Source: a virus
Lineage: Duplodnaviria > Heunggongvirae > Uroviricota > Caudoviricetes
Length of the DNA stretch: 15,970 nt
Reading direction: 5' to 3' (one strand)
Virus record (IMG/VR): IMGVR_UViG_2778261276_000005
Span: 1 to 15,970 of that record
The notes below the pieces were generated by a model. The model did no database searches, was not told the origin of the DNA, and saw nothing but the letters and a program-made list of their open reading frames with translations. A program made the translations under genes and the position numbers. Below are positions 1-15,970 of the stretch, in pieces (the stretch's first letter is position 1; each line of letters begins with the position of its first letter).

Positions 1-209
1 GTGGCGGCCTCAGTCCGGAACAATTTGAAAACCAGAACCTCGCTTAGGCCTGTGTCCATATTACGTGGGTAGGATCAGTTATCCCTTCGTATCAATGACT
101 GACTCTTAAACGCAATGCTTTGGTTGCTGGCGTATCTGACAGCTTCTTCGGCGTGAAGGTCGTTGTGTAAGTATACTTCTTGGTTTATTTAGGCTATATA
201 AAACCATGA

Positions 210-1999: not shown

Positions 2000-3545
2000 A
2001 TAGTTCCCTCACTTTCATGCGAGTAATAATTTGTAGAAATTTATCAAGATTATCAAATCTATAGAGATCTAACCGAATGTTGTTTGTTTCCATCATACAC
2101 ATTTTACTATATTCGTTTTCAATCTTTGGTATGATATAAAAATCAAGAGGTGAAATATTTTGTGAATTCATTCGTATAACAATTGTTATGTCTGCTTTCT
2201 GTGAGTTATCAAACCGGACTTTCCATCTAAGTTTACCTGATTTCATATGTATGCATTTAGTAACAAGGACGGAAATTAAAAACTCATCATTGATGTAAAG
2301 CATTGGGTAATATTTATACTCGTCTATATGACAGTTACTTTTTAATATTTCGCCCTTAAAATCCTCAATTATCTCTGAGTAAAATGATCTTAGTGCTTCA
2401 TTTATTTGGAGATAGCTGTAATCATGTTCTGGCTTATAACCAATCAAAGTATATGCTCTTAAAAGACCACCAAATCGGGTTCTATAAACAGAAGATGAAG
2501 GGCCTGTATCATCTTCATCAATGATAAAGCCTGATAGTTTTCCATTAGATTCTAATTTTTCTTTTAGCTTTTCTAATAGATCTTCATTAGTCAAATGAAT
2601 GGATCGGAGCTGAATTATTTCTTGAGCTTTATTATATTTTTTCTTTGAAATAATTGGTTTATATGCCTTGTCACATCTAATCCATTCATGTTTGGGGTTT
2701 TTTACAAGCCTACTTTTTAGTTTAGATGAGGTTTTGTTATATATGTTGTTTCCAATATATTTTTCATTTGTCAAAATTTGATGTATTTTTGCACGAGTCC
2801 ATGATGTTCCATTTTCTGCAGGTATGCTCTGTTCATTTAATCTCTCAGCAATAATGAATTCTGGGACGTTACTATCTATAAAGAGATCATAGATTCTATT
2901 TACAATTTTTATTTCATTTTTTGGTCCCGGAATTAATATTACCCTATCTGTTTGAATACTCTTTCTTTTGCGGAAATTCAATATTTCTTTAGCTATGCCA
3001 TTTTCGTCTACTAAAAGACGTCTCAGCCCATAACCAGCCATACCGCCTTGATGATAACCAAGCTTTATTAAATTTACTTGCCCTATAAATACCTTTTCAG
3101 ATAGATTCCTGCTGTGATATGCAGCACTTGATCTTTTTATATTCAGTATAACAGAGGACTCTAAAGGGAAATCTTTAGTGGGTATAGGTTCGGAACAATA
3201 TATAAGATCTACACCATTTCTTTCAAATAGAAAGGAATAATATGCAGCTTCATCACTATTTTGAAAACGACCAAAACGGCTCACATCATAAAATAATACA
3301 GCCTGTATATCTATTTTCTTTTGTTCTACATCGCTAAGTAACTGCTGCAAAGAATGCCTGCCTACGATACTGACTCCGCTCTTACCTGCATCATCGTAGG
3401 TATAAGCGATTTCCATATTGTTCTTTTCAGCATAATCTTTGATATATTCAGACTGATTATGTAAAGAATATTGCTGATGGTCGGTAGACATCCTCAAGTA
3501 CTGTGCGACCCTAACTCTATGATTTTTTTCATTTCCGCTAGCCAT
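1989..3545 (-). CDS. Large serine recombinase (resolvase/invertase-type catalytic domain plus long C-terminal recombinase extension)
   Basis: N-terminal motif YLRMSTDHQ with the catalytic Ser, typical of serine recombinases; about 518 aa from the ATG at 3545 (the ORF track begins at a TTG at 3551); GAGG 8 nt upstream of that ATG. Confidence 0.85.
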   Translation of the reverse strand: MASGNEKNHRVRVAQYLRMSTDHQQYSLHNQSEYIKDYAEKNNMEIAYTYDDAGKSGVSIVGRHSLQQLLSDVEQKKIDIQAVLFYDVSRFGRFQNSDEAAYYSFLFERNGVDLIYCSEPIPTKDFPLESSVILNIKRSSAAYHSRNLSEKVFIGQVNLIKLGYHQGGMAGYGLRRLLVDENGIAKEILNFRKRKSIQTDRVILIPGPKNEIKIVNRIYDLFIDSNVPEFIIAERLNEQSIPAENGTSWTRAKIHQILTNEKYIGNNIYNKTSSKLKSRLVKNPKHEWIRCDKAYKPIISKKKYNKAQEIIQLRSIHLTNEDLLEKLKEKLESNGKLSGFIIDEDDTGPSSSVYRTRFGGLLRAYTLIGYKPEHDYSYLQINEALRSFYSEIIEDFKGEILKSNCHIDEYKYYPMLYINDEFLISVLVTKCIHMKSGKLRWKVRFDNSQKADITIVIRMNSQNISPLDFYIIPKIENEYSKMCMMETNNIRLDLYRFDNLDKFLQIITRMKVRELYAA

Positions 3546-3827
3546 GCACAAAACCTCATGGATGATTCAATACAATGTAGAGGATAAAATTGATCAAATT
3601 TTAACCGAATTCAACTGTTTTATCATTGATTAGAGCGAATTTGGTAGTTCTTCGAGGTGTATGATAATCGAGAAGAGATGTGAATTATTTAGCTGATATG
3701 ACCGACAGCTTTCGTTATGTGGCCTCAAGGTACCCATTTGTAAATGGCTATGCTTAGTCCACATAGGTTAATGGTGTGATCATTAATTCTTCAAATAAAT
3801 CAAGATAGTTAACCCATCATGGAAGAG

Positions 3828-5057
3828 TTATGCGGCAATAACTTTGTATTTTTGAGACGAAACATAGTCACTCCACCATTGCATGAGAACCACACGTTCT
3901 GTGAGATACTCTGCACGATTGTAGGCTGCAATTATTTCATCTTTTTTCGAGTGGGCAAGGGCGGCTTCTAAGACATCAGTTCTAAACTTGCCACACTCCT
4001 CAGCCGCCGTTCTAGCGATTGATCGCATACCATGAGCTACAAGCTCACCTCCGAAGCCCATACGGATTATAGCCGCATTAGCTGTTTGTTCATGCATGTG
4101 ATTGAGTGGAGCTTTGATACTGGGAAAAACCCACTCTCTATGCCCGCTGATGGCTTTCATTGAATCCAAGACTCGCAAAGATTCTTTGCTCAGTGGAACT
4201 TTGTGAGGCTTCTTCATTTTCATAAACTCCGCCGGGATGTTCCACATGCTGGTTTCTATATCAATATCTGACCATCTTGTGCGAACAGCTTCACCAGGGC
4301 GAACCCATGTGAGAAGTTGCCACTCAATCAGTAGCCTTGTTTCTAAACGGATAGAAGCATTGTTTAGAGCAACCAGGAAGCGGGGGAGTTCGGAAGGGGG
4401 TAATGCTGGCATATTCTGTTTTTTTGGCTTGCTGAACCGTTGCCCCAGGTTGTCAGCCGGATTGAATTCTATGAGTTCTTCTGTTGCTGCATAGCGGAAA
4501 ATTTCATTCAGGCGGGATATGACGCGGCGAAGTGTTTCAAGGACACCTCGTTTTTCTATGGGGTCTAAATGCTGTTTAAGCATTTTAGGGCGAATCTCCT
4601 TAATGGGGGTATCACCCAACGTTGGAAAGATATTTCTCTCTAGGCTTCGCCAGATGTCGTTAGCATGATCCTGGGAGATGCCTGACGTTTTGACTTTCTC
4701 ATCAAGCCACTTCTTGGCTACTGCTTGAAATGTATGTTCCGTTGCATCCTTAAGGGCATTGGCTTTGTGGGTGTTATGAACTTGTGGGTCTATACCATTT
4801 GCAAGCAACGACAAGTACTCATCACGTAAAGCTCGTGCCTTCGCAAGTGTAAGGTGAGGATAGGTTCCTAAGCTCACCTTAGTTCGCTTTTTGGTCACAG
4901 GCACTGCATATCTGAAATACCAATTTTTCTTTCCTCCCTTCGCTAAGGGGGCGATTCGCAGGAGCAAACCATCGCCGTCAAAAAGGTTAACCTCTTTCTC
5001 GGCAGGTTTGGTGCTTTTGATTTCAGTGTCAGTGAGCTTCTTAGCGATTTTTGCCAT
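3828..5057 (-). CDS. P4-family tyrosine integrase
   Basis: Arm-binding N-terminus (KNWYFRY), C-terminal catalytic region with HGMRSIARTAAEE ... LAHS ... AYNRAEY (R/H/Y catalytic residues); the ORF track extends to 5201, but the ATG at 5057 (MAKIAKKL...) has a GAGGG ribosome-binding site 8 nt upstream, giving about 410 aa. Confidence 0.9.
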   Translation of the reverse strand: MAKIAKKLTDTEIKSTKPAEKEVNLFDGDGLLLRIAPLAKGGKKNWYFRYAVPVTKKRTKVSLGTYPHLTLAKARALRDEYLSLLANGIDPQVHNTHKANALKDATEHTFQAVAKKWLDEKVKTSGISQDHANDIWRSLERNIFPTLGDTPIKEIRPKMLKQHLDPIEKRGVLETLRRVISRLNEIFRYAATEELIEFNPADNLGQRFSKPKKQNMPALPPSELPRFLVALNNASIRLETRLLIEWQLLTWVRPGEAVRTRWSDIDIETSMWNIPAEFMKMKKPHKVPLSKESLRVLDSMKAISGHREWVFPSIKAPLNHMHEQTANAAIIRMGFGGELVAHGMRSIARTAAEECGKFRTDVLEAALAHSKKDEIIAAYNRAEYLTERVVLMQWWSDYVSSQKYKVIAA

Positions 5058-5100
5058 GTTTGGGACCCTCATGTTTTGGACCCTTTGTGTTGGGTCCCAA
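5058..5100 (-). promoter_or_regulatory. Cluster of GGGACCC-type repeats just upstream of the integrase start (possible regulator or integrase binding sites)
   Basis: GTTTGGGACCC (5058-5068), GTTTTGGACCC (5073-5083) and the inverted copy TTGGGTCCC (5090-5098) within 45 bp. Confidence 0.3.
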
Positions 5101-5155
5101 AAAGGGTGCCATAACGAGTAGATTCTAGCAATTCTCGGTAGACTACTATAGACGT

Positions 5156-5189
5156 AAAAAAGCCCGCAAGGCTGGTTCCATGCGGGCTT
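5156..5189 (-). terminator. Rho-independent terminator, minus strand, just downstream of the ssrA 3'-end fragment
   Basis: Perfect 9-bp inverted repeat AAGCCCGCA / TGCGGGCTT (5160-5168 / 5181-5189) followed on the minus strand by a run of T (plus-strand A run 5156-5161). Confidence 0.6.
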
Positions 5190-5223
5190 GATAGACTTCA
5201 CTGAACTTCAATATATCAAAAAT

Positions 5224-5254
5224 TGGTGGAGCTGGCGGGAGTTGAACCCGCGTC
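5224..5254 (-). repeat. ssrA: 31-nt fragment identical to the 3' end of tmRNA (ssrA); attachment-site repeat, not a complete gene
   Basis: Minus-strand sequence GACGCGGGTTCAACTCCCGCCAGCTCCACCA matches the acceptor/T-arm 3' terminus of enterobacterial tmRNA as I recall it; similarity stops abruptly at 5255 and no tmRNA body follows. Confidence 0.8.
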
Positions 5255-5379
5255 AAAATTTATATAATCTTTTGTAAAATATACGTTTTTTCTATTGTTT
5301 TTGATCCGCGTATACTTCGCGTACACTTTGCCATTTGAACTTAAACATGCTGCCGTCGCTACATCATGACATGTTATTT

Positions 5380-6081
5380 TTACTTCTCATTTTCAAAGTC
5401 ATCACGAATGTTAATTAGATCTGTAATCAAAGCGCCAACTTTAGTTGAAGGATTTATCGAACCGTCTTTTTTGGCGGCATCTTCGACTCTTTTAGCATTG
5501 ATTAATGCCGTATCGAGCCGATCTTGCAATTTATTAAATACACCTGATGCCTTTTTCTCATAATCTGGCATGTATTTTTTTAACTCAGCTAGCATTTGTG
5601 CGCCTTCACTTTTGCCTTTCTGAGGTGAAAATGATTTTCGGGGGTATCCAAAATGTAGTATCAGCCAGTACTCGAAACATGGTATGGAAGTTATAGCAAC
5701 AAAAATCCCTTTTGGATTTAAGGAATTAATCCTGCTAAGAGCTTCATCATAGTTAGGGTGAGCGTCTCTATCAAAGACACAATAAACCTTATCATAAGGG
5801 TCGCTCCTTTTTTTTTCCGTATTATATTTTTCTTTTGCCCAAGATACCACATTCATAGGGCTTGAGCCGCACTCTCCAGAAATCTCAACTATGCTTGCCG
5901 TGCTTATACGGCAATGTTTTATAAAATCTGTAAAATATGCGGGCTCAGTCTTCTCTCCCTCACAGACGATAAGAATTTTCTTCATTTGAGCTCGTGCTTT
6001 ACTAACTCGTTTGAATTCATTATTACGCCGAGCCTTTCTTTTTTTGAACAGATCTTCGCTTCCCATTAATATCTCTCCCAT
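5380..6081 (-). CDS. RloB-like (AbiLii-family, TOPRIM/OLD-type) protein
   Basis: Motifs ILIVCEGEKTEPAYF, VFDRDAH and CFEYWLILHF characteristic of the RloB family; overlaps the upstream ATPase gene by 16 nt; an alternative ATG at 6066 (TAATG overlap, GGAG 8 nt upstream) would give 228 aa. Confidence 0.7.
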   Translation of the reverse strand: MGEILMGSEDLFKKRKARRNNEFKRVSKARAQMKKILIVCEGEKTEPAYFTDFIKHCRISTASIVEISGECGSSPMNVVSWAKEKYNTEKKRSDPYDKVYCVFDRDAHPNYDEALSRINSLNPKGIFVAITSIPCFEYWLILHFGYPRKSFSPQKGKSEGAQMLAELKKYMPDYEKKASGVFNKLQDRLDTALINAKRVEDAAKKDGSINPSTKVGALITDLINIRDDFENEK

Positions 6082-7331
6082 TTCCCAATGAGTGGTAAAG
6101 CCCCATATCTACCGTCAAGATAAGAAGCTTCTAAATTCTCCCTTCCTTTTCTTGGACTAAAATCCGTAAGTGGGAAAAGATTTGTTTGCTTTGAATTGTC
6201 TTTTTCTACAAACCAAATCTGATCTCGTCTGAAAACATCTTGATTTAAAATAGACGTCTCATGAGTTGTAAAGATTAACTGGGCACCATTCTTATTGATA
6301 TTTTTATCGTGAAATAAACCTACAATAAACTCAACTAATTTGGGGTGTAAGTTATCATTTAATTCATCAATAAACAGGATGTTTCCTGTCTCGAGTGAAT
6401 GTGATAAGGGACCCGCGAAACTAAAGATTTTTCTAGTTCCATGCGATTCATCTTTTAAATCGAATGGAATTGGCTCTCCATCCTCATTATTATGAAGTGT
6501 TTTAATGACATATTCTTCCTTGCCTTGCATATTCTTAATCACTAGTTCCTTGATGGCTGCAGGCATATCATCAGGAAGAGCATTGGGATTGAATTTTTCT
6601 TTTGTTACATGAATGTCATCAATACCTACATCGGCAGCTTTTAAAAAATTGAGAATCTCATCTTTCTTATCATTTAAGCATTGCTTTGCACTGTAATCAC
6701 TATCCCAACCTGTTAATTCAGTAAATTTAACTTTGTAATAAAACCAATCGTATACAGGTTTTAGTTGTACACTGTTTAATTGTACCGCTGTAGAAAGAAA
6801 GAGCGCATTAGGCCTAGTTGATTTCAACCATGTTTGTTTTTCTCCTGTCAACGATGGCCCCAACTCCCATTCATGGGTTTGTTTTTCTTCATCCCATAGA
6901 CGTAAAAACCATTTTTGTGGTCTGCCTTTGGGGAATGCAAATAACCATTCGTCGTGAATAAAATCTTCTGTTGCAGAAAAACCATACTGGTATCTGATGC
7001 CTTCGGAAATAAAGTTAATTTCAAATTCAGATGGTTGATTAATCTTCTTTGAGTCTAGTCTAAAAGGCGTGATATCAAGTTTATCACCACTTTTATAACC
7101 TGTAGCAGACCGGACAATAAGTTCAGCCATAGTTGTAATAGCGTTAATAATGTTTGATTTTCCGGCAGCATTAGGGCCATAAATCACAGCACTTTTAAGC
7201 AATTCAAGAGATTTAGGTTCATCAATACTGAACAGATTATTAGGCAAATCGTTAAGTTTTGATGCAACTAAACTCAGTGTTTGTTTCTCTGAAATAGATT
7301 TATAGTTTTGTACTGTAAACTCAATCAACAT
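6066..7331 (-). CDS. AAA/ABC-type ATPase (AbiLi-like, AAA_21/AAA_15-type)
   Basis: Walker A GPNAAGKS near the N-terminus, Walker B LFIDELNDNLH near the C-terminus, 421 aa; AT-rich; first gene of a two-gene operon. Confidence 0.75.
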   Translation of the reverse strand: MLIEFTVQNYKSISEKQTLSLVASKLNDLPNNLFSIDEPKSLELLKSAVIYGPNAAGKSNIINAITTMAELIVRSATGYKSGDKLDITPFRLDSKKINQPSEFEINFISEGIRYQYGFSATEDFIHDEWLFAFPKGRPQKWFLRLWDEEKQTHEWELGPSLTGEKQTWLKSTRPNALFLSTAVQLNSVQLKPVYDWFYYKVKFTELTGWDSDYSAKQCLNDKKDEILNFLKAADVGIDDIHVTKEKFNPNALPDDMPAAIKELVIKNMQGKEEYVIKTLHNNEDGEPIPFDLKDESHGTRKIFSFAGPLSHSLETGNILFIDELNDNLHPKLVEFIVGLFHDKNINKNGAQLIFTTHETSILNQDVFRRDQIWFVEKDNSKQTNLFPLTDFSPRKGRENLEASYLDGRYGALPLIGKWERY

Positions 7332-7521
7332 AATTTATACCCTTTTAACTTCCCATAGCTTAAAAACCACTAAAAGTGATTTTATAGCACAAATTTGACA
7401 AAAAACGTCAAATCTTTGCATTTAATGCACACTAAAACCATTGTACACTATCCTCATCATCCTGCTAACATTCTTGTAAGCTTTACTGTTTTGCGAAGGG
7501 GGGCTAGTGCTATCGGGCGTT

Positions 7522-8718
7522 TTACTTCTCAATTTTCATGTTCTCCGGATTTTTTGATACTTGGTCCTTACAAGCTGTCTTGCCATCATAGTCTACGAGA
7601 TACGAACCATAATGCCTGAAAAGCATTTCCGGCCCTTTATGCCCCATTTGAGCTGCAAGCCAAAACAGATTTGCTCCTCGGCTGATATGGCTGGTGGCGA
7701 ATGTATGCCTAGTTTGATATGGATTTCTGTATCGAATACCTGCTTTCCGTAATGTTGGCACCCATGCTTTTTTCCTGATTGCATCAGCACTTGCCCAAGG
7801 CTTATTGGTCTTTGGGTCTTCAAAGACAGTAGCATCCTTCATGAATGTAAATGGCTTCTGATTTATCAGCGCCAACATTGCCTCTTCTGTCAGTTCAACT
7901 TTACGAGTACCTGCTTTTGTCTTTGTCCCTTTGATAACACCGACAACACTTGCGCTCTGGACATGGGCAGTTTTTCCAACAAAGTCGATATCACGCCATC
8001 GAAGGGCACATAATTCAGAACTACGCAGGCCTGTATGTATAGCGAACCGGAACAGATTCTCCCATTGTTTGTTTCCGGCTGCTGCTAGTAATGCATCAAC
8101 TTCTGTTGGTGATAGCGGATCAACCACGTAGCTGCTTTCTACTTCTGACTTATCACTTTGGTAGCGCGAAGCAGTTACCAACGATACGGGGTTAATTTGA
8201 AGTACCCCATCGGTTACGGCTTCATCAAGTGCTGACCGCAGGAAAGATAACTGGTTGCGAATTGTTTTTAAGGTCGTTTTCTGGCTTTGAATCCACGCTT
8301 TCAGGATTGCTGGTGTTAATTCACTTGCAGGGCAAATGTGGAGTGAGGCTAACGCACTACGGCATTTTTTATAACCACCAATCGTAGATGGTGAAAGTTT
8401 TCTCGTTTCGCAGATTTCAAGGTATTCGTCCAGGTACATTTTTACCGTTTTGCCTGCAGCAGCATTACCAAAAATTTTCAAACGAGCAGAACGGGGAAAA
8501 TATTCCGCATAAATGAATGTTCCCCTTTCGATCTTATTATGAATTTCGCCGAGTGTGCGCTCGGCGTATTTAATGTTCTTTGGTGTTACTTCCAGATTGG
8601 AAAGTGGCTCACGACATTTAACTCCTTTGTAGGTGAAAGTTATATTGATCGTTTCTCCCTGACGGTGTTTTCTGATTGTTACGCCGCGCGGTAGTTTGAG
8701 CAGTTTTGTCTGGCCCAT
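7522..8718 (-). CDS. Lambda-family tyrosine integrase
   Basis: 398 aa; C-terminal catalytic region RHTFATSHISRGANLFWLAAQMGHKGPEMLFRHYGSY and a C-terminus ending ...KIEK as in lambda Int; GAGG ribosome-binding site 7 nt upstream; 5' end overlaps xis. Confidence 0.9.
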   Translation of the reverse strand: MGQTKLLKLPRGVTIRKHRQGETINITFTYKGVKCREPLSNLEVTPKNIKYAERTLGEIHNKIERGTFIYAEYFPRSARLKIFGNAAAGKTVKMYLDEYLEICETRKLSPSTIGGYKKCRSALASLHICPASELTPAILKAWIQSQKTTLKTIRNQLSFLRSALDEAVTDGVLQINPVSLVTASRYQSDKSEVESSYVVDPLSPTEVDALLAAAGNKQWENLFRFAIHTGLRSSELCALRWRDIDFVGKTAHVQSASVVGVIKGTKTKAGTRKVELTEEAMLALINQKPFTFMKDATVFEDPKTNKPWASADAIRKKAWVPTLRKAGIRYRNPYQTRHTFATSHISRGANLFWLAAQMGHKGPEMLFRHYGSYLVDYDGKTACKDQVSKNPENMKIEK

Positions 8719-8885
8719 TTTGCAACCTCACTAAGATCAATCCACCTCTCCTTAACGCCTTCAACCTTTAAAACCTGAACACCTTCACGCCAAACACCGC
8801 GCTGTACACGTTTGTTTATTGCTTCAGGAGTTTCGCCAGTTTCTTTGCAATAAGTTGAGATAGGAACGCAATCGAGGTTCAGCAT
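8679..8885 (-). CDS. Excisionase (Xis-like winged-helix DNA-binding protein)
   Basis: Small basic protein directly upstream of and overlapping int; W/R-rich pattern (VQRGVWREG...ERWIDLSEVAKW) like lambda Xis; ATG at 8885 has GGAG 6 nt upstream (the ORF track begins at a GTG at 8897). Confidence 0.65.
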   Translation of the reverse strand: MLNLDCVPISTYCKETGETPEAINKRVQRGVWREGVQVLKVEGVKERWIDLSEVAKWARQNCSNYRAA

Positions 8886-8944
8886 ATGTTTCTCCACTTA
8901 GCCCGCTGCACACGGGCAGTAATATCAAATTCCAGTCCTGATAA

Positions 8945-9160
8945 TTAATTTTGTTCTCTGGTTGCTACCTGTTTTATTGGCCTGATGCTGTCCAGGAGCA
9001 GACGGCGACGCATGTTTGGCGCACCCCAACGGTAACCAGTCTTTTTGTCGTAGGATTCACAACGTCCGGCAACCCAGGACGTTTCAGTGGAATGTAATTT
9101 CATCCGCTTTTCACCGTCTCGGGTGATAACAATTCCTGTATGAGTTTTTATCACGCTCAT
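8945..9160 (-). CDS. Hypothetical small phage protein
   Basis: 71-aa ORF; ATG overlaps the stop of the upstream gene (ATGA at 9157-9160), i.e. translationally coupled within the leftward operon. Confidence 0.45.
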   Translation of the reverse strand: MSVIKTHTGIVITRDGEKRMKLHSTETSWVAGRCESYDKKTGYRWGAPNMRRRLLLDSIRPIKQVATREQN

Positions 9161-9519
9161 TTCTTAGTCTCTGGTGCTTTCGGCATTACTGCCCAGTGAG
9201 TGATATTGACGTTTTCAAGGTCCCCGACCTGAAATGTCCACTGCCATTCTCCGGTTTCTTTTTGCCCCCATGTGTACCAGAGAGAACGCCAGCCAATCAG
9301 CCAGCCTTCTCCATTAGCATCAAATAACAGAACACTTTCATTTGCTGGCGGCAGTTCAGCTGACACTGGTATTACTTTGTTTTCCAGAGCCGCACATTTA
9401 GCTTCAAGCGCATCGAATTTACGTACCAGATACTCAGCATTTGTTTCATTCACTTTCAGATCTCGCGGTACACATTTCCCGCGAAGAACCCCTTCCATTT
9501 CGAAAACATTCATGCGCAT
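9157..9519 (-). CDS. Hypothetical phage protein (Trp-rich C-terminus; YfdS-like by size and position)
   Basis: 120-aa ORF; GGAG 8 nt upstream of the ATG; overlaps the stop of the upstream HD-domain gene by 10 nt. Confidence 0.55.
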   Translation of the reverse strand: MRMNVFEMEGVLRGKCVPRDLKVNETNAEYLVRKFDALEAKCAALENKVIPVSAELPPANESVLLFDANGEGWLIGWRSLWYTWGQKETGEWQWTFQVGDLENVNITHWAVMPKAPETKK

Positions 9520-10046
9520 TTGCGTAACTCCGATAATTCGTTAAAGCGTTCCATAAACATCCCGTAGGCATGGCCTGGAGCCAGTGGAATCACGTTGAAC
9601 ATCTCTGTTGCCGGGATACCTTCCAGCACAGGCCAGAAAGAGCCATCATCAAGCCCGAGATCGCGGCGTTCGGTTGCCAGCATGATGAGATCGGCATATT
9701 TCACGGGGGTACTCATAACCGGGGGTAACCCGTATTTCTCACGGATTACGGCGTCTATTTTTTCTTCCATCCGTTTATAGTCAGGAAGAAGGCGTTTCAG
9801 TGGCGCCGGGATGTCCTGGCAATACGCTTCTGTTGCATCATGCATTAACGCTTCAAAAGCAAATTCCTGCGGTACCAGTTGGCTGCAAAGCACCGCATGT
9901 TGGGCGACGCTGTAGAAATGTGAAAGATGTCCTGCAAAGCGACAGATATTTGAAAGAGAAACCGCGATATCGTTAATAACGATGTCGTCTTTATTTATCC
10001 TGTCATAATAAAAATGCTTCCCGGAAAAAGTTTTAATAAATGACAT
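9510..10046 (-). CDS. HD-domain metal-dependent phosphohydrolase (YfdR-like putative 5'-deoxynucleotidase)
   Basis: H...HD motif pattern (SVAQHAVLCSQL, LMHDATEAYCQDIP); the ORF track starts at a GTG at 10073, but the ATG at 10046 has GGAG 8 nt upstream and gives 178 aa. Confidence 0.75.
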   Translation of the reverse strand: MSFIKTFSGKHFYYDRINKDDIVINDIAVSLSNICRFAGHLSHFYSVAQHAVLCSQLVPQEFAFEALMHDATEAYCQDIPAPLKRLLPDYKRMEEKIDAVIREKYGLPPVMSTPVKYADLIMLATERRDLGLDDGSFWPVLEGIPATEMFNVIPLAPGHAYGMFMERFNELSELRKCA

Positions 10047-10139
10047 TTTGTTCTCCACGTATATGCGCTGCACCGCGCTGAATTCTGGTAAAAGGAAGCC
10101 CTCACCATCCGGCGATTATTGAGTCAATTACGTTTCCAT

Positions 10140-10161
10140 AAATGCCCCCGCAGGGGCATTT
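10140..10161 (-). terminator. Perfect stem-loop right after the stop of the upstream gene (weak terminator or stability hairpin)
   Basis: AAATGCCCC-CGCA-GGGGCATTT, 9-bp stem with a 4-nt loop, 13 nt downstream of the stop at 10174; only a short U-tract. Confidence 0.35.
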
Positions 10162-10173
10162 GCAGTAATGAAA

Positions 10174-10998
10174 TCAGGCGGTGAAAGTACCAATAAAGGT
10201 TTCTACTTTGCTGTCCTTGAATTTCTCAACAAGCAGATCACGAAATTCGTTAGCCATTTCTTCCTGCACTGCTTCCAGCTGAATAATGCGCAGAACCAGT
10301 ACAGGACGATCGCCAGTGATAATGCTGAGGCGTAATTTAAACGGACGTTCTTTCAGGCCTTCAAACGGAACGCATTTAAATTCAAATGCCACAGGCATAA
10401 TATCTTTGGTCTTCGCTTCGACAGACTCCATCAGGGAGCGTTTGCCGCTGAAGTCATTGTCTTCAAAATCAGCGGTCTGGTTTGCTTCAATCGTGATTTT
10501 ACGGACTGCCGCAGCCGCTTTTGTTGCCTGAATGGCATCACCATTAGCATCAAAGCCCACAAGGTAGTCGGCCCAGTCTTCGATCCATTCTGCCAGTGAC
10601 TTCTGGGAGTTACGCTCGCCGTTAACAGACAACAGAGCAGAGAACGGTGCTGTCTTTTTCAGTTTGAGAGTGGCAGTGTTATCTGCGTGACCTGGCTCAT
10701 CAATAGTACCCAGGTTAAGCACACTGACGGCACGCATATTATCGGCATCGATAAAGCAGCGGGTGCCTTCATCTGCAAGATCTTTAGAATAACGAGTAAA
10801 GTCATCGATGCTGGCAGTGGAAAGCGCACCACGGAAACGGAAACGATTTAAATTAAATTTTTCCAGATCATGAATGCGGAAATTCTCAGGCAATGCCACA
10901 GCATCGGCACCAATCTTACTGATAATTTCATTAACACCCTGAGCAGAAATAAGGGCATGGATTTGATTAATTGCGGTTGCGTCTAAGTTCTGAGACAT
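10174..10998 (-). CDS. Phage protein of unknown function (YfdQ-like, 274 aa)
   Basis: Long ORF with GAGGA ribosome-binding site 6 nt upstream of the ATG; size and neighbourhood match the yfdQ-type gene of KplE1/CPS-53-like prophages (from memory, unverified). Confidence 0.65.
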
Positions 10999-11063
10999 AA
11001 TAAGTCCTCACTATATAAAAATATTCAGTGATGAGAGAAATAATCAGTTTATTAAAAACGATA

Positions 11064-11426
11064 TTAATGACCTGCTGCGCGGAGTTTTCCGTCAGGTTCA
11101 CCGGCAAGAGTCAGTAATTGTCCCTGGTCTTCCTGCAGAATAGTCAGGCGACCACCGCGATTGACATACATCGGCGTTTCGGTGGTGTCTTCTTCGGAAA
11201 TTTTCCCGCGGTTAGTCGGGCGAACATATGAGAGTTTGTGTTTGATTTTCACACGGTTCTCATCAAATGGTTCGATTTCCAGGTTGAGTGAGACCTTACC
11301 TTTGGTTTTCGTGTTCATCACACCGGAAGCGACTTCACTGAGAACTGCGCCGATTTTTGTTTCAAATACGCCGCCGTCCAGCTCCCCGATAAATGCCTGC
11401 ACATCAGTACTGCGTTCGCTAGCCAT
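11064..11426 (-). CDS. Hypothetical phage protein, first gene of the leftward early operon
   Basis: ORF track gives 197 aa from 11657, but the N-terminal 77 codons run through the GC-rich hairpin region; the ATG at 11426 (MASERSTDV...) has GAGGAG 7 nt upstream and gives 120 aa. Confidence 0.55.
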   Translation of the reverse strand: MASERSTDVQAFIGELDGGVFETKIGAVLSEVASGVMNTKTKGKVSLNLEIEPFDENRVKIKHKLSYVRPTNRGKISEEDTTETPMYVNRGGRLTILQEDQGQLLTLAGEPDGKLRAAGH

Positions 11427-11562
11427 TTTGTTGCTCCTCATCATATCGACCCTGCAAGGCCGATTAGTTTCTCCACAAAACAGAGAAGAACACCTGCGGT
11501 GGCAGCCGCCCGGATGGATTGGGTTATGAGCCCGTCGTCCGGTGATGCTCTTCTCTGTTTTG

Positions 11563-11609
11563 TAAAAAGAGCGGTACCAGCCGGAAGCAAGTGTACAAAC
11601 TGGTACCGC
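11563..11609 (-). terminator. Strong intrinsic terminator on the minus strand inside the leader of the leftward operon
   Basis: Perfect 10-bp inverted repeat GCGGTACCAG / CTGGTACCGC (11571-11580 / 11600-11609) followed on the minus strand by TCTTTTTA. Confidence 0.6.
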
Positions 11610-12020
11610 CAAAGCAGTGGCTGTTGTGGTGGGGTTGTCACTCAGGCGTATGGTCAACCTGACAATCCGGTGTCCTCAACGGGGAAAGAGTAACCCCGCC
11701 ATACTTACCGCCGCGCCATTTCGCGGATGACCACAACGCTGAGAGCACTTAGCCAGTTACGGCACCACACTTTGTCGCGGCTCCATAAATGCCCTCATCG
11801 TTGCACCCTGGTCTCTTCCCAGGCGTCAAACCGGATCGCCACGCTGGTTAGGCGTCTTATCAGCATCATCATTGACTTGCACATTCCGGCTACCTGGTTT
11901 GTTTGCCCTAGCAAGGAGTGGATTGTCCCCTTTAACGTCCCCAGACCGCTAACGACGCATGTGCCATACGCCGTGTTACAACCAAATTTTGTTAGTACCT
12001 TGTTTGTTGGTCTGGAAAGA

Positions 12021-12049
12021 AAGATAAAATGAAATTGCGCGTTGTGCAA
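12021..12049 (-). promoter_or_regulatory. Candidate pL-like promoter for the leftward early operon
   Basis: Minus strand TTGCAC - 17 nt - TATCTT; the -35 overlaps a 15-bp TTGC-N7-GCAA operator-like palindrome. Confidence 0.4.
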
Positions 12050-12072
12050 GTGTTTTGTTGCGAGATATGCAA
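12035..12072. promoter_or_regulatory. Two operator-like palindromes (oL-like)
   Basis: TTGCGCGTTGTGCAA (12035-12049) and TTGCGAGATATGCAA (12058-12072) share the TTGC-N7-GCAA architecture with a site in the cI-cro intergenic region. Confidence 0.5.
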
Positions 12073-12082
12073 TTTAATGGGT

Positions 12083-12107
12083 AATGAAAAGCCACCTTCG
12101 GGTGGCT
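12083..12107 (-). terminator. Rho-independent terminator following the cI-like repressor gene
   Basis: Stem GCCACC-TTCG-GGTGGC (12091-12106) about 20 nt after the cI stop, followed on the minus strand by TTTTCATT. Confidence 0.65.
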
Positions 12108-12127
12108 AATTGATGAGGAGGTAAGGG

Positions 12128-12820
12128 TTAATTGTGTCGCTTAAGGGTTTGTGACTGGCTGATTAAGACCTTTCCAAAGACCATAAACCGGTGTTCATTT
12201 TCGCTGGTAATTCCCCATTCACGGTAAATCTGGTTATCAGAAATCACCAGTAGTTTGTCAGGTATCATTTGCAGTCGTTTGACATAAATTTTATCATCAA
12301 AACCAAATACATAGATACCATCTCCATCAAACTGATTGATACTGACATCAACGAAGATGAGATCTCCTGGCTCAATGGTTGGACACATACTGTCCCCACG
12401 AACGTTGATAACTTTAATGTGATTGGCTGGTCGTCCGCCAAACATCGATACAGCATTATCAGTTCTGTATTCAATGGCATGAATCACATCAATGACATCA
12501 CCGCCCTGGATAAGGCCATTTCCCGCACTGGCACTGACATCCAGCATTTCAATACGGAATACATCCTTCACCTGCGCAACATCCTCACTAATACTGTTTT
12601 TACATACAGTATTACTTTTGAAGTCTGAGGTAAAGAGATCAGCAATATCAACACCTAAGCTCCTGGCAATATTACTCAGGGCTTGTTCAGTGAATTGTTT
12701 CTGCTTACCTGTTTCCAGGCGTGAGATATTCGCCGCATCCACTCCTATTGCTTCAGCGAGATCGGCGATTTTCATGTTCTTCGCCTGGCGAAGTTGTCTG
12801 ACTCGATTTCCTATGTTCAT
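12128..12820 (-). CDS. cI-like prophage repressor (XRE-type HTH plus LexA-like S24 autopeptidase domain)
   Basis: N-terminal HTH (VRQLRQAKNMKIADLAEAIGVDAANISRLETGKQ), C-terminal GDSM ... VKRL Ser/Lys dyad pattern; divergent from a cro-like gene. Confidence 0.9.
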   Translation of the reverse strand: MNIGNRVRQLRQAKNMKIADLAEAIGVDAANISRLETGKQKQFTEQALSNIARSLGVDIADLFTSDFKSNTVCKNSISEDVAQVKDVFRIEMLDVSASAGNGLIQGGDVIDVIHAIEYRTDNAVSMFGGRPANHIKVINVRGDSMCPTIEPGDLIFVDVSINQFDGDGIYVFGFDDKIYVKRLQMIPDKLLVISDNQIYREWGITSENEHRFMVFGKVLISQSQTLKRHN

Positions 12821-12917
12821 GCGTTTATTACATTTCTTTATTGCGCGTTAAGCAAATCAACTTGCGCAAAATAGTTGCGTGAAATAATATGCTTATCACG
12901 CAATATGTGGAGGTTAT
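12821..12917. promoter_or_regulatory. Immunity-region control region: divergent pRM-like and pR-like promoters with operator-like sites
   Basis: Plus strand TTGCGC (12862-12867) - 17 nt - TAATAT (12885-12890) then GGAGG and the cro ATG; minus strand TTGCTT (12855-12850) - 17 nt - TGTAAT (12832-12827) ending 6 nt before the cI ATG; palindrome TTGCGCGTTAAGCAA (12841-12855) and inverted repeat TTGCGTGA-N13-TCACGCAA (12875-12903). Confidence 0.6.
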
Positions 12918-13178
12918 ATGCAATCACCATTACGGAATGTGCGTAAAGCGCACGGATTTACTTTGCAGCATGTTGCTGCGGGCGTTCAGGTCAATCCAGC
13001 GACGCTGAGTCGTATTGAAAGACTGGAACAAATTCCATCTATCGACCTTGCAGAACGTCTGGCCAATTTTTTTAAGGGTGAAATCAGCGAAATGCAGATT
13101 CTTTATCCGGCACGTTTTCAATCTAGCCAAAACCAGAATGGGTTTAAACCACAGGAACAGGAGGTAAGCCGTGGGTAA
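12918..13178 (+). CDS. Cro-like HTH regulator
   Basis: 86 aa; HTH FTLQHVAAGVQVNPATLSRIER; GGAGG ribosome-binding site; divergent from cI across the operator region. Confidence 0.75.
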   Translation: MQSPLRNVRKAHGFTLQHVAAGVQVNPATLSRIERLEQIPSIDLAERLANFFKGEISEMQILYPARFQSSQNQNGFKPQEQEVSRG

Positions 13179-13722
13179 GCATCACTGGAAAGTGGAAAAA
13201 CAGCCTGAGTGGTACGTGAAAGCTGTCAGAAAAACTATCGCGGCGTTGCCGGGGGGGTACGCTGAAGCTGCTGAGTGGCTGGATGTAACAGAGAACGCTT
13301 TATTCAACCGCCTTCGTGCAGATGGCGATCAGATTTTCCCGCTGGGATGGGCAATGATTTTACAGCGCGCTGCTGGCACTCACTACATTGCGGATGCTGT
13401 CGCACAGTCTGCTGGTGGGGTGTTTGTATCGCTTCCTGAAATTGAGGAAGTAGAGAACGCAGATATAAACCAGCGCCTGCTGGAAGTCATCGAACAGATC
13501 GGGAGTTACTCAAAGCAGATTCGTTCGGCAATCGAAGATGGGGTAGTGGAGCCACACGAGCAGACAGCAATTAATGATGAATTGTATCTGTCAATTTCGA
13601 AGCTCCAGGAGCATGCGGCACTGGTCTACAAAATTTTCTGCGCTCCAGAAAAGAGTGACGCCCGCGAGTGTGCAGCTCCGGGCGTCGTGGCGTTTTGTGT
13701 CTGTGGAGAAACTAACGCATGA
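13171..13722 (+). CDS. cII-like / phage regulatory protein (putative)
   Basis: 183 aa, GTG start with GGAGG 6 nt upstream, overlapping the cro stop by 8 nt; position and acidic, helix-rich sequence suggest a CII/CP76-type regulator, but the family assignment is uncertain. Confidence 0.5.
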   Translation: MGKHHWKVEKQPEWYVKAVRKTIAALPGGYAEAAEWLDVTENALFNRLRADGDQIFPLGWAMILQRAAGTHYIADAVAQSAGGVFVSLPEIEEVENADINQRLLEVIEQIGSYSKQIRSAIEDGVVEPHEQTAINDELYLSISKLQEHAALVYKIFCAPEKSDARECAAPGVVAFCVCGETNA

Positions 13723-14870
13723 ACAGTTTAACGGCAAATAACCGTTTGTCGCAACAGCTGGTGGTCAGTGTCGCTGCACACCTGTTGTTACGGCATGAAT
13801 GCAGATTACCAAATCACCTGGCTGTAAGTAACCACAGAGAACTTTACCTGACTGTGGGGGGCGAGTTGTGCAGGAACTTAACCGCTGGTTTCGTGACGGA
13901 AGAGGACTTTATGTTCATGTTATTCGTTGGGAGCCAGAAACACAGCGCGTTATCTATCTTCGCAAAGACTACCCGCATGAGTGCTTTAGTCCTTTGTGGA
14001 AATTCAGGCGTGATTTTGTTGAGTGTGAAGGACCACCAGCACATTGATTCTGCCATTCCGGGACGTTACACTGTTCAGGCACCTTATAAAACGGGTGCCG
14101 GGCGTGGAAACCCGGAATTCACCAAAGCGCACAACCGCGCTCTTGCGGTTTTTTTGTGTCATGAGCAGCATTACGCCCAAATTATGGTGGGGCGTGCAGG
14201 GCCAACTTCGGTTGGGCCGGGTTCTTTGGTGACCGGTATTTCCACCCCTGTACGTCTCACCACCAATAAGGTCGTGGAAAGCCTTGGTGGTGAGTTATTA
14301 AAAATCACCAAAGAGGCTGCCATCATGGCTACGATCCCAACCCTCACTCAACCTGAAATTGCCATCGTTGATGGTCAGGCTGTTACTTCATCTCTGGCTG
14401 TTGCCAACTTCTTCTCCAAACGTCATGACGATGTACTGAAAAAGATCCGCACGCTTGAATGCTCCGCATCATTCACTGCCCGCAATTTTTCGGTGAGTGA
14501 TTACACCGATTGCACAGGCCGCAAACTACCTTGCTATCAAATAACCCGCGACGGCTTTGCGTTTCTTGCTATGGGGTTCACGGGTAAACGTGCTGCCCAG
14601 TTCAAAGAGGCATACATCAATGCCTTTAACCAGATGGAGAAACAGCTTTCAAAGCCCGCTGTACCGAGCGACGTTGCACATAACGCCAGCGTTCTCTGTT
14701 CCTACATTTCATCAATTCATCAGGTCTGGCTGCAGCAGCTTTATCCTATGTTGGCAAAAGCCGAATCCCCGCTGGCTGTTAGCTTGTATGACTATATTAA
14801 TGATGCTTCGGCACTGGCCTGCCTCATAAATTTGTCACTGAACCCTTCAGAGGTAAGGGGGCGCAAATGA
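13719..14870 (+). CDS. Rha-family phage regulatory protein (Rha domain in the C-terminal half; N-terminal about 200 aa of unclear assignment)
   Basis: Frame open for 383 codons with ATG overlapping the upstream stop (ATGA at 13719-13722); Rha-type motif IAIVDGQAVTSSLAVANFFSKRHDDVLKKIRTL begins just after an internal ATG at 14325, which has AAGAGG 9 nt upstream and may be the true start. Confidence 0.55.
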   Translation: MNSLTANNRLSQQLVVSVAAHLLLRHECRLPNHLAVSNHRELYLTVGGELCRNLTAGFVTEEDFMFMLFVGSQKHSALSIFAKTTRMSALVLCGNSGVILLSVKDHQHIDSAIPGRYTVQAPYKTGAGRGNPEFTKAHNRALAVFLCHEQHYAQIMVGRAGPTSVGPGSLVTGISTPVRLTTNKVVESLGGELLKITKEAAIMATIPTLTQPEIAIVDGQAVTSSLAVANFFSKRHDDVLKKIRTLECSASFTARNFSVSDYTDCTGRKLPCYQITRDGFAFLAMGFTGKRAAQFKEAYINAFNQMEKQLSKPAVPSDVAHNASVLCSYISSIHQVWLQQLYPMLAKAESPLAVSLYDYINDASALACLINLSLNPSEVRGRK

Positions 14871-15091
14871 TCCGGAATATTTTCAAACGGTTTACCAATC
14901 ATACTTTCCGTTGTCCTCGTCCGGGTCAGTGGTACACCACGCCTGCAGGGCATGTTCTACGTGTTAGCCTGGTGGACCGTGAATGTCAGAAGGTGATTTG
15001 TGAACCGCTGGGCCGTAATTACCGCGTCAGTATGCCGCTTATAGCCTTTTGCTCCGGAAAAAACATGAAGCATCTCGGAGGTGCAGCATGA
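14867..15091 (+). CDS. Hypothetical small phage protein
   Basis: 74-aa ORF; ATGA overlap with the Rha stop at 14867-14870, and its own stop overlaps the next start (ATGA at 15088-15091). Confidence 0.45.
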   Translation: MIRNIFKRFTNHTFRCPRPGQWYTTPAGHVLRVSLVDRECQKVICEPLGRNYRVSMPLIAFCSGKNMKHLGGAA

Positions 15092-15894
15092 GTATGGAGC
15101 TGATGGTTAAAGCGATGAAAATTCGAGTGGGTAATCCATTACGAAAACTGGTTCTGATCAAGCTGGCTGATAATGCCAGCGATCAGGGTGAGTGCTGGCC
15201 CAGCTACCAGCATATTGCTGACCAGTGCGAGATTAGCAAACGTTCTGTGATGAATCATATTGCGGCCCTTTGTGAGTCCGGGCTGGTAAAAAAAGTCACC
15301 CGGAAAGGTGAAAAAGGTAACTCAAGTAATATCTATCTCCTTCATCTGGATGGTGCAGGAGATTCACTAGGGGGTAGTGCAAATAATTCACTATCTGGTG
15401 CAGCAAATTCACCAGGTAGTGCAGGAGTTGCACCAGGGGGTAGTGCAGGAGATTCACCCAGAACCAGTCACTCTTTTGAACCAGTCAATGAACCAATAGC
15501 TGTTGGTGCATCTGCTGATGAGTCTGTGCGAGTTCGTTCAAACCGACCGGAATACTCTCCGGAGTTTGAGCAGGCATGGCTGGCATACCCCAAACGTGCT
15601 GGTGGCAATTCAAAATCTGCAGCCTTCAAAGCCTGGAAAGCCCGTTTGAATGAGGGGGTAAAACCCGAAACCATGCTGGAAGGTGTGAAACGCTACGCGG
15701 GCTGGGTATCTGCGATGGCTAACAGCGGAACACAATTTGTGAAACAGGCTGTCACGTTCTTTGGTCCGGATCGTCATTTCGAAGAATCCTGGGAAGTTCC
15801 TGCGGTATCTGCAGCCAGACGCGAGGACCCGTACTTCAAAGCCAGTTACGACAACGTGGACTACAGCCAGATCCCGGCAGGATTCAGGGGGTAA
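15088..15894 (+). CDS. Replication initiator, lambda O-like (N-terminal HTH, low-complexity linker, C-terminal domain)
   Basis: HTH region LRKLVLIKLADNASDQGECWPSYQHIADQCEISKRSVMNHIAAL; start ATG at 15088 has GGAGG upstream (the ORF track starts at 15049); contains in-frame direct repeats at 15354-15467. Confidence 0.7.
   Translation: MSMELMVKAMKIRVGNPLRKLVLIKLADNASDQGECWPSYQHIADQCEISKRSVMNHIAALCESGLVKKVTRKGEKGNSSNIYLLHLDGAGDSLGGSANNSLSGAANSPGSAGVAPGGSAGDSPRTSHSFEPVNEPIAVGASADESVRVRSNRPEYSPEFEQAWLAYPKRAGGNSKSAAFKAWKARLNEGVKPETMLEGVKRYAGWVSAMANSGTQFVKQAVTFFGPDRHFEESWEVPAVSAARREDPYFKASYDNVDYSQIPAGFRG
15354..15467. repeat. Five tandem imperfect 21-24-bp direct repeats (iteron-like; candidate origin of replication inside the O-like gene)
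   Basis: TGCAGGAGATTCACTAGGGGGTAG / TGCAAATAATTCACTATCTGG / TGCAGCAAATTCACCAGGTAG / TGCAGGAGTTGCACCAGGGGGTAG / TGCAGGAGATTCACCCAGAACCAG; every unit length is a multiple of 3. Confidence 0.5.
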
Positions 15895-15896
15895 TC

Positions 15897-15970
15897 ATGA
15901 GTCTTTTGAATGAAGTTCAGAAATTCATTGAAGCCCATCCGGGGTGTACTTCCGGAGACATTGCGGATGC
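15897..15970 (+). CDS. 5' end of the next rightward gene (partial; possibly the replication partner of the O-like gene)
   Basis: ATG at 15897 preceded by GGGGG 5 nt upstream, directly after the O-like stop; encodes MSLLNEVQKFIEAHPGCTSGDIAD..., running off the window. Confidence 0.4.
   Translation, partial: MSLLNEVQKFIEAHPGCTSGDIAD

Follow-up and report, generated by a model that had tools for sequence, protein, structure and literature searches.

The 15,970-bp stretch of DNA analysed here (IMG/VR record IMGVR_UViG_2778261276_000005, positions 1 to 15,970; hereafter the window) contains the immunity region of a lambdoid Escherichia coli prophage, in which 15-bp imperfect palindromes of the form TTGC-N7-GCAA lie on both sides of a cI-like repressor gene and are very likely the operators of that repressor in a lambda-type switch. 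These sites exist, are enriched, keep their positions across related loci while their centres are free to vary, change together with the helix-turn-helix (HTH) type of the repressor and travel with the cI-cro cassette. The window holds a lambda-type immunity region of so far uncharacterised specificity. Just outside the cassette lies a second conserved feature, a structured RNA of ~190 nt in the leader of the transcript from the predicted early leftward promoter, pL.

Palindromic sites around the repressor gene

The prophage belongs to the immunity type of mEp460, SfII and Stx2a_1447. Its 1.6-kb immunity core is 100% identical to the E. coli chromosome of strain CH4797 and shares 97-99% identity with phages PhiR47_1, mEp460 and Stx2a_1447/WGPS2 and 91% with Shigella phage SfII. 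Phage mEp460, which has the same immunity region as the window, is a working temperate phage inducible with mitomycin and has been reported to represent an immunity group of its own (PMC9836094). The repressor matches Pfam models Peptidase_S24 (6.5e-19) and HTH_3/HTH_26, and its translation, read by eye, shows the serine of GDSM, the lysine of KR and the Ala-Gly of SASAGNG. Neither the repressor nor the Cro-like protein matches an NCBIfam model at its cut-off, and PHROGs labels the former only as "transcriptional repressor / CI-like repressor". In gene content the locus is as the original prediction described it, with candidate sites flanking a cI-like gene (HTH plus S24) that diverges from a cro-like gene, and the four sequences named in that prediction were all found, where it had placed them, when checked against the letters of the window.

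Exact copies of TTGC-N7-GCAA occur four times in the window, compared with 0.55 expected, and four copies were reached in 1 of 200 shuffles. Three of the four fall within the 821 bp flanking the repressor gene (12035-12855), where the density of 36.5 per 10 kb is ~85-fold above the background of 0.43 per 10 kb, determined in 1.03 Mb of other phage and host DNA. The motif scan proposed along with the original prediction thus gave no sign of a similar frequency throughout the genome. Two of these copies make up the putative left operator (oL1 and oL2; centre-to-centre distance 23 bp, with a spacing of 22-24 bp kept among relatives), and the third (site A) belongs to the putative right operator (oR). 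If one mismatch is allowed, 15 copies are found in the window against 10.4 expected, a result that is uninformative alone; this set includes a second oR site (site B, 12889-12903). The fourth exact copy, at 14510-14524 inside the Rha gene, has a G+C-rich centre, ranks outside the top 14 matches of the weight matrix described below and is probably due to chance. Among the loci compared, each one with two exact sites 20-26 bp apart encodes the repressor family of the window.

Positional conservation and matrix searches

We compared 15 loci, namely the window and 14 others whose repressors share 66-99% identity. They include Salmonella phage Adana, Klebsiella phages Kp4873-4 and P7641, Escherichia phage Eeyore, SfII and PhiR47_1, as well as genome loci of Shigella, Citrobacter, Pseudescherichia, Klebsiella, Buttiauxella and Trabulsiella. 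Each of the 15 loci has an exact site 35-36 bp ahead of the cI ATG (12841-12855 in the window) and, at -83/-84, a site with one mismatch, TTGC-N7-GCAT in the cI orientation (12889-12903). Most loci have two sites 22-24 bp apart, 53-57 and 75-81 bp past the cI stop (12058 and 12035). At -133/-134 from the cI ATG, relatives with a repressor identity of <=84% carry a further site, and the close clade of the window has a palindrome with two mismatches at the equivalent place (12939-12953), a fifth candidate site, inside cro, that the original prediction overlooked. The outer TTGC and GCAA are fixed and the fifth base (G/C) mostly so, while the central bases vary freely, giving an operator consensus of TTGCG-N5-CGCAA with an A/T-rich centre. 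Comparison with related immunity regions, which had been suggested as a check, therefore found the sites positionally conserved in the 15 loci, and the claim that one class of site stands on both sides of cI, as in lambda oL and oR, holds across them.

A weight matrix was built from 36 sites of eight distant loci only, with the window's own clade excluded. Applied to the window, it ranked oL1, oL2, site B and site A highest, in this order (Table 1); these four sites (17.4-18.8) outscore every one of 60 shuffles (maximum 15.8). The site inside cro ranked fifth (12.6), and the next match scored 9.2. The identical five sites rank highest in the 29.6-kb locus L002, from strain CH4797. The sixth-best match there (7599-7613, TTGCGATTTGTACAA, score 11.3) lies just upstream of the prophage integrase gene, in a left arm that differs from that of the window; it may be a chance match or a weak repressor site near int.

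The palindrome inside cro, which in relatives reads TTGCG-N5-CGCA[AT], is kept by them despite amino-acid changes (V/L, A/S, H/Q) and may be a distal operator. It also persists in loci L012 and L013, where cro is deleted or truncated; as these are degraded prophages, we regard their support as weak and did not accept them as independent proof of the site.

Predicted promoters and the cI terminator

The promoters pL, pR and pRM (Table 1), which we infer from sequence together with conservation, are closely interleaved with the sites. The -10 block of pL, AAGATAA, is conserved in most of the 15 loci. The two oL sites had originally been described as overlapping the pL -35, and this is so for oL1, one half-site of which is the -35 hexamer and which covers the hexamer and 11 bp of the spacer (approximately -35 to -21 from the predicted pL start); oL2 sits upstream of the -35. 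The overlap claimed for site A with the pRM -35 was borne out, since hexamer and half-site coincide and pRM is conserved in the 15 relatives, with ATTACA (the pRM -10) and the TTGC of its -35 invariant. The seventh base past the pRM -10 is the A of the cI ATG (12820), and no Shine-Dalgarno sequence precedes this ATG; a leaderless cI mRNA like that from lambda pRM is therefore predicted. In pR, TAA-AT of the -10 is invariant in the 15 loci, and a GGAGG ribosome-binding sequence follows at 12909-12913. A middle oR site at the pR -35 (12862-12876) is degenerate in the window (TTGCGCAAAATAGTT) and has one mismatch in the Klebsiella, Eeyore and L011 relatives (TTGCGCAATTCGCTA, TTGCGCAAGTCGTAA).

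We also observed that all ten bases of ACTTGCGCAA, which spans the pR -35, are fixed in the 15 loci, beyond what a -35 hexamer needs, and that they contain an 8-bp palindrome, TTGCGCAA, made of two abutting half-sites. The stem of the cI terminator, identified with a terminator scan, is kept by compensatory changes (GCCACC/GGTGGC, GGCCTC/GAGGCC, CCGCC/GGCGG), and relatives have the U-run. A leftward promoter called by a consensus promoter scanner (TCCACA-N16-TATTAT) is not conserved among relatives and was rejected.

Table 1. Positions in the window of the genes, sites, promoters and RNA elements discussed in the text.
Feature	Position	Strand	Details
Exchangeable immunity cassette	11994-13142		pL, oL, terminator, cI, oR and cro; replaced as a single block in phage cdtI
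cI-like repressor, 230 aa	12128-12820	minus	N-terminal HTH_3, C-terminal S24 LexA-like autopeptidase
Cro-like HTH_3 protein, 86 aa	12918-13178	plus	Pfam HTH_3 5.8e-10; divergent from cI
Candidate operator oL1, TTGCGCGTTGTGCAA	12035-12049		exact motif; matrix 18.8; position conserved in 13/15 loci
Candidate operator oL2, TTGCGAGATATGCAA	12058-12072		exact motif; matrix 18.8; upstream of pL -35
Candidate oR site A, TTGCGCGTTAAGCAA	12841-12855		exact motif, 15/15 loci; matrix 17.4; over pRM -35 and spacer
Candidate oR site B, ATGCTTATCACGCAA	12889-12903		ATGC-N7-GCAA, one mismatch; matrix 18.6; over pR -10/+1
Candidate distal site, GTGCGTAAAGCGCAC	12939-12953		cro codons 8-12; 50 bp from site B; ~+43 to +57 of pR
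Left arm of 29-bp repeat, TTGCGTGA	12875-12882		lineage-specific, not a conserved site
Predicted pL	12021-12049	minus	-35 TTGCAC 12049-12044; 17-nt spacer; -10 TATCTT 12026-12021; start ~12013-12014
Predicted pRM	12827-12855	minus	-35 TTGCTT 12855-12850; 17-nt spacer; -10 TGTAAT 12832-12827
Predicted pR		plus	-35 TTGCGC 12862-12867; 17 nt; -10 TAATAT 12885-12890; start ~12897
Invariant ACTTGCGCAA	12860-12869	plus	holds pR -35 TTGCGC and one operator half-site
Intrinsic terminator of cI transcript	12090-12107	minus	between cI stop and oL2
Structured leader RNA, ~190 nt	11796-12000	minus	core helices 11807-11973; identified by covariation
P1 helix	11973-11953	minus	
P2 helix	11946-11942 with 11896-11892	minus	
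P4 helix	11855-11841	minus	
P5 helix	11823-11807	minus	
PK1, possible pseudoknot	11964-11959 with 11884-11879		GCACAU with AUGUGC; invariant, hence no covariation signal
PK2, possible pseudoknot	11849-11846 with 11832-11829		AACC with GGUU; co-varies with CACC/GGUG in other copies
Terminator-like hairpin	11563-11610	minus	10-bp stem GCGGUACCAG/CUGGUACCGC, 19-nt loop, UCUUUUUA; -21 kcal/mol and U-run

Exchange of the immunity cassette

Phage cdtI is 98.6% identical to the window up to position 11993 and 97.3% identical from 13143 on, with an unrelated interior of the same type as the cassette of the K-12 prophage e14 (YmfK/YmfT). All five candidate sites, pL, pR, pRM and the terminator are located inside the exchanged block and the CII-like gene outside it, so that the sites travel with cI and cro and not with cII. 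Both e14 and cdtI keep the flanks and cII at 89-98% identity, the CII-like protein of the window being 89% identical to e14 YmfL. The e14/cdtI cassette (YmfK/CohE and YmfT/CroE) shares with the window its flanking genes, its architecture and the presence of palindromes on both sides of the repressor gene; it differs in an unrelated HTH (the S24 domain alone aligns, with 38% identity) and in palindromes of GTAC type between cI and cro and past cI (TGTACC-N5-GGTACA). These differences in HTH and palindromes imply a different immunity specificity.

We accordingly rejected the e14 immunity type for the window: its cI aligns with YmfK over 39 S24 residues only, its Cro has no match to YmfT, and the operator matrix finds no site in e14, where the best score, 8.4, lies in an unrelated place. 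The name "ymfL" in RefSeq does not make the prophage e14-immune. As a separate observation, the e14 (L150 1585-2524) and cdtI (L153 560-1508) regions carry TGTACC-N5-GGTACA, ATGTA...TACAT and GGTACATTATGTATC between ymfK and ymfT and downstream of ymfK, which are candidate operators of the K-12 e14 repressor; the literature searched describes no operator sites for e14 YmfK and holds a table entry only.

Which protein reads the sites

The recognition helices of the two HTH proteins in the window are alike (DAANISRLE in cI, NPATLSRIE in Cro). Across the family they are essentially fixed (D-x-A-N-[IV]-S-R-[LV]-E-T-G-K in cI and [DN]-x-[AS]-[TN]-L-S-R-[IV]-E in Cro), while linkers and tails diverge. 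Homologues of ~40% identity (from Turner, PhiR70_1, SPLA1b, Mulock and a Mannheimia phage) have other HTH sequences and, at the equivalent places, other palindromes, for example ATACGC-N2-GCGTAT or ATCGC-N4-GCGAT, and never TTGC-N7-GCAA. Because its recognition helix is similar, Cro probably reads the cI operators as well.

Binding of the sites not by cI but by Cro alone, or by some other product of the cassette or its flank such as the CII-like YmfL, is unlikely. Cro has its own HTH_3 with a similar helix, and the oR site that is strongest covers pRM, the first position to be occupied by Cro in lambda, but a lysogenic repressor requires sites such as those at pL and the one over the pR -10. 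Lambda CII also recognises TTGC repeats; its sites, however, are direct TTGC-N6-TTGC repeats and not inverted repeats with N7, and e14 and cdtI, in which the TTGC-N7-GCAA sites are lacking, keep the YmfL gene with 89-97% identity. The sites thus follow cI and cro rather than cII.

Slightly less probable still is the proposal, made in the original prediction, that the 29-bp inverted repeat TTGCGTGA-N13-TCACGCAA may form a separate kind of site, for instance one for Cro. The repeat is present at 12875-12903, its 8-bp arms are perfect in the window and PhiR47, and it spans the pR spacer, -10 and start, so the claim that it covers the pR -10 stands. Its right arm, however, is the right half of site B and is fully accounted for by this 15-bp site of the common class, which scores as high as the oL sites and begins with A instead of T since its first two positions double as the final two of the pR -10. 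The left-arm TTGCGT is retained only in the >90% clade (window, PhiR47, SfII, L008, L009 and L010) and is missing in Adana, Klebsiella, Eeyore and L011-L015. The seven more distant loci, and all relatives with a repressor identity of <=84%, lack it, although the Cro recognition helix is conserved there. Even inside the close clade the extended arms decay (in SfII, L009 and L010), SfII and L008 having TTGCGTGA...ACGCGCAA and L009 TTGCGTAA...TGGCGCAA. With the right arm explained as a site of the same class and the left arm specific to one lineage, a separate class is not needed.

We give very little credence to the view that the TTGC words are nothing more than -35 hexamers, belonging to three promoters, and that their palindromic partners arose by chance: three half-sites do coincide with predicted -35 hexamers (pL, pRM and pR), but every locus keeps the GCAA partner unchanged at a distance of exactly N7, no -35 coincides with oL2, site B or the cro site, matrix scores exceed those of all shuffles, and the motif changes with the repressor type. 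It is just as improbable that the palindromes act as RNA hairpins (attenuators or terminators) and not as protein-binding DNA, for although a terminator scanner flagged 12035-12049 and 12938-12954 on the plus strand as weak terminator-like hairpins, the stems are merely 4-5 bp, the half-sites are invariant rather than co-varying and the centres are free to vary, no plus-strand transcript is expected over oL, which lies upstream of the leftward start, and compensatory changes are seen in the neighbouring cI terminator and not in the sites.

Several points nevertheless weigh against assigning the sites to cI in a lambda-type switch. The 15 loci are related, so that positional conservation in them does not amount to 15 independent observations, and the sites in the matrix, from which the window's own clade was left out, were picked with the originally predicted pattern at homologous positions. 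The consensus promoter scanner called none of pL, pR and pRM in the window, as each -35 hexamer shares no more than 3-4 of its 6 positions with TTGACA. The best consensus oR site lies over pRM and not over pR, and oR has no lambda-like triple of adjacent sites; with the middle site degenerate, lambda-style positive autoregulation cannot be assumed. The site inside cro may have been kept in part by coding constraint. Finally, the literature searched holds no binding, footprint or reporter data for this immunity type, and the SfII, SfIV and SfV papers describe no operators.

A possible mode of action

In the scheme that we infer for the pairing of proteins with sites, their order of affinity, the precise location of promoters and starts, and possible cooperativity or looping, a dimer of the cI-like repressor would place one HTH on each TTGC half-site. 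At oL1 it would cover the -35 hexamer and spacer of pL, and oL2 lies 23 bp upstream, at a spacing that would allow pairwise cooperativity. A repressor bound at site B would sit on the -10 and start point of pR and silence cro along with the early-right operon. Site A, which covers the -35 of pRM, could serve negative autoregulation by cI, shut-off of cI by Cro, or both, and the palindrome 50 bp inside cro is a possible auxiliary site. Self-cleavage of the S24 domain upon SOS induction would then release all sites.

Comparison with known switches

The region resembles that of lambda in the divergent cI (with a LexA-like S24 autopeptidase) and cro genes, in a single class of imperfect palindromes on both sides of cI that overlap the predicted pL, pR and pRM, in a cI unit bounded by a terminator and predicted to give a leaderless mRNA from pRM, and in a block that can be exchanged as an immunity cassette. 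It differs in that its sites are 15 bp long with a TTGC half-site (17 bp in lambda), that oL has two sites instead of three, and that the two strong sites of oR lie 48 bp from each other, where lambda has three side by side; in addition, the best consensus oR site lies over pRM, an extra site is possible inside cro, and Cro is an HTH_3 paralogue of the N-domain of cI and not a Cro of the lambda fold. The lambda arrangement of three adjacent sites per operator, ~23-24 bp apart, with activation of pRM from the middle site, was not found. Three-site operators are a feature of lambda itself and not of every lambdoid phage. Neither an N gene nor cIII was seen in the window; N was looked for among the open reading frames scanned with Pfam, which left some small ones unscanned.

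Phage 434, with 14-bp ACAA-N6-TTGT sites, likewise has two paralogous HTH_3-type proteins with similar helices acting on one set of palindromes, in which outer 4-bp half-sites are conserved and a non-contacted, A/T-rich centre is variable. Half-site and spacing differ, however, and the sequences are only marginally similar: among PDB entries the cI N-domain matches the 434-derived 1sq8 best, at a weak 24 bits, and no solved structure is closer. The base-contacting residues Q28, Q29 and Q33 of 434 are A, A and R in the cI of the window, and a specificity unrelated to that of 434 follows from their replacement. In the phages TP901-1 (OD) and r1t (O3) of Gram-positive bacteria, a third, distal operator of the same class lies within the cro-like gene downstream of the lytic promoter; their repressors, which have no S24 domain, assemble into higher oligomers and loop DNA. 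In contrast, the candidate site within cro of the window is only 50 bp away.

A structured RNA in the pL leader

In the ~590 bp between pL and yfdP no record annotates a gene on the minus strand, yet 11731-11987 matches non-coding DNA of P1, P7, D6, phiV10-like and other phages with 70-88% identity, and more than 120 viral contigs were recovered with an invariant 18-mer, TTGCACATTCCGGCTACC. When 41 representatives of <90% identity are aligned, four nested helices are supported, together with two possible pseudoknots (Table 1). In this alignment 97.6% of cells are paired, compared with 88.6% in shuffles and 24-49% when the partners are slid; two-sided changes occur at 12 pairs, and the covariation score of 0.274 (vs 0.121) was reached by none of 500 shuffles. 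Frequent G.U pairs, which would be A.C on the opposite strand, fix the RNA to the minus strand, that is, to the pL transcript. A conserved structured RNA on this strand is thus almost certain. Folding of the single sequence is unremarkable on both strands (z ~-1.2). With a covariance model of 188 positions and at least four covarying helices, the copy in the window scores 156 bits, and a diverged copy that follows the oL pair of Klebsiella phage Kp4873-4 scores 107 bits.

The element has no match in Rfam 15, even at E<=10, no tRNA was found in it, and its identification as the Pas small RNA was rejected. A literature search with its literal sequence returned unrelated primers only. A plus-strand open reading frame of 101 aa spanning the RNA (11727-12032) was set aside as a gene candidate, the G.U pairs fixing the minus strand and the frame being unannotated in most records.

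The RNA is widespread. It was found in 1,833 of 5,426 complete E. coli genomes (1,913 places on chromosomes and 554 on plasmids), and none of the 40 RefSeq rows sampled annotates it. In the P1 reference genome, whose 535 features do not include it, it occupies the interval from trnI to ban on the strand of these two genes; P7 and D6 likewise carry it between trnI and ban. Twenty-eight copies are closely followed by tRNA-Arg and 18 closely preceded by tRNA-Ile(CAT), in every case on the same strand; phages related to phiV10 and epsilon15 were seen to carry the element, in phiV10-like phages before tRNA-Arg. Among 128 copies, 45 lie 84-450 nt past the stop of an S24 repressor gene, in at least three immunity types, and in loci L034 and L064 the element begins ~10 nt after a pL with TTGC-N7-GCAA operators. 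In the window the structured core begins ~40 nt, and the covariance-model match ~14 nt, after the predicted pL start.

What could the leader RNA do?

Downstream of the leader RNA, before yfdP, stands a terminator-like hairpin (Table 1), ~200 nt past the last helix and ~220 nt past the nominal end of the element. More generally, a sense-strand terminator occurs within 600 nt in 75 of 86 distinct 3' flanks, compared with 34 of 86 on the antisense control. The stretch 11400-11611, which includes the hairpin, is 98% identical in phage SfV, and SfV is without the leader RNA.

No N has been reported for SfII, SfV and SfIV (PMC3851460) or for LLS-type phages (PMC12315714), and a put-like RNA was speculated to exist in N-less lambdoid phages with a yfdR-yfdQ-yfdP left operon, none having been identified (PMC12315714). 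The put RNA of HK022 and HK639 is ~70 nt long with two stems (PMC9378689). The leader RNA shares with HK022 put the layout of early promoter, structured RNA, terminator and genes in a phage without reported N. Its first hairpin, ACGGCG-loop-CAUGCGUCG, resembles put stem I: ACGGCGC-loop-CCAUGCGUCG in HK022 and HK639 compares with ACGGCG-loop-ACAUGCGUCG in helix P1 of the leader RNA, with a G.U pair in common. The leader RNA also has the GGAAGAG apical loop of HK639 putL, and AGCGG...CCGGAAU stands where put has GCGG...CGGCAAU. On the other hand, the leader RNA is far larger (~190 nt, at least four helices and two possible pseudoknots) and also occurs in P1-like and phiV10-like phages next to tRNA genes, and no second copy follows pR in the window. 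Membership in the put family was rejected, as blastn, nhmmer and the covariance model give no match on HK022 or HK639. Besides a putL-like RNA, the HK639 record (L152 37910-37969) annotates an "M3-like RNA" after cII.

We tentatively suggest, as a possibility that the analysis raises but leaves doubtful, that the leader RNA is a cis-acting processive antiterminator replacing N in N-less lambdoid phages. Alternatively, it may be transcribed together with tRNAs and processed to a stable RNA, or regulate as a leader in some other way.

Other genes of the window

A CII-like (Phage_CP76/YmfL) gene and then a Rha/Ash gene follow cro. The left arm of the prophage holds genes of the yfdP-yfdQ-yfdR type, a DUF551 gene and the integrase gene (7522-8718). 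Further to the left, the window is not collinear with strain CH4797, despite the 100% match in the immunity core, and a separate integrative element appears to adjoin the prophage. Between the prophage integrase and a second, P4-type integrase (3828-5201) sits a minus-strand gene pair (5380-7331), encoding an RloB-like protein (PF13707) and an AAA_21/AbiEii-type ATPase (PF13304), that resembles an anti-phage defence pair. Left of the second integrase, at 210-3551 on the minus strand, are two tandem ParB/RepB-like genes and a large serine recombinase gene.

Implications

The candidate operators give a DNA specificity, TTGCG-N5-CGCAA, to an immunity group that is common in prophages of E. coli, Shigella, Salmonella, Citrobacter and Klebsiella and includes some Stx2a phages, which helps the prediction of cross-immunity, the design of reporters and the annotation of cassettes. 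They also outline a compact variant of the lambda switch with two oL sites, two separated oR sites, -35 hexamers that double as half-sites and a possible site in cro. The gain from the operators is modest, and the leader RNA matters more. It is a concrete candidate for the put-like RNA speculated to exist in N-less lambdoid phages; if it does act as an antiterminator, it would make up a second class of put-like RNA, much larger and more widespread, and would explain how early-left operons pass the terminator in front of yfdP.

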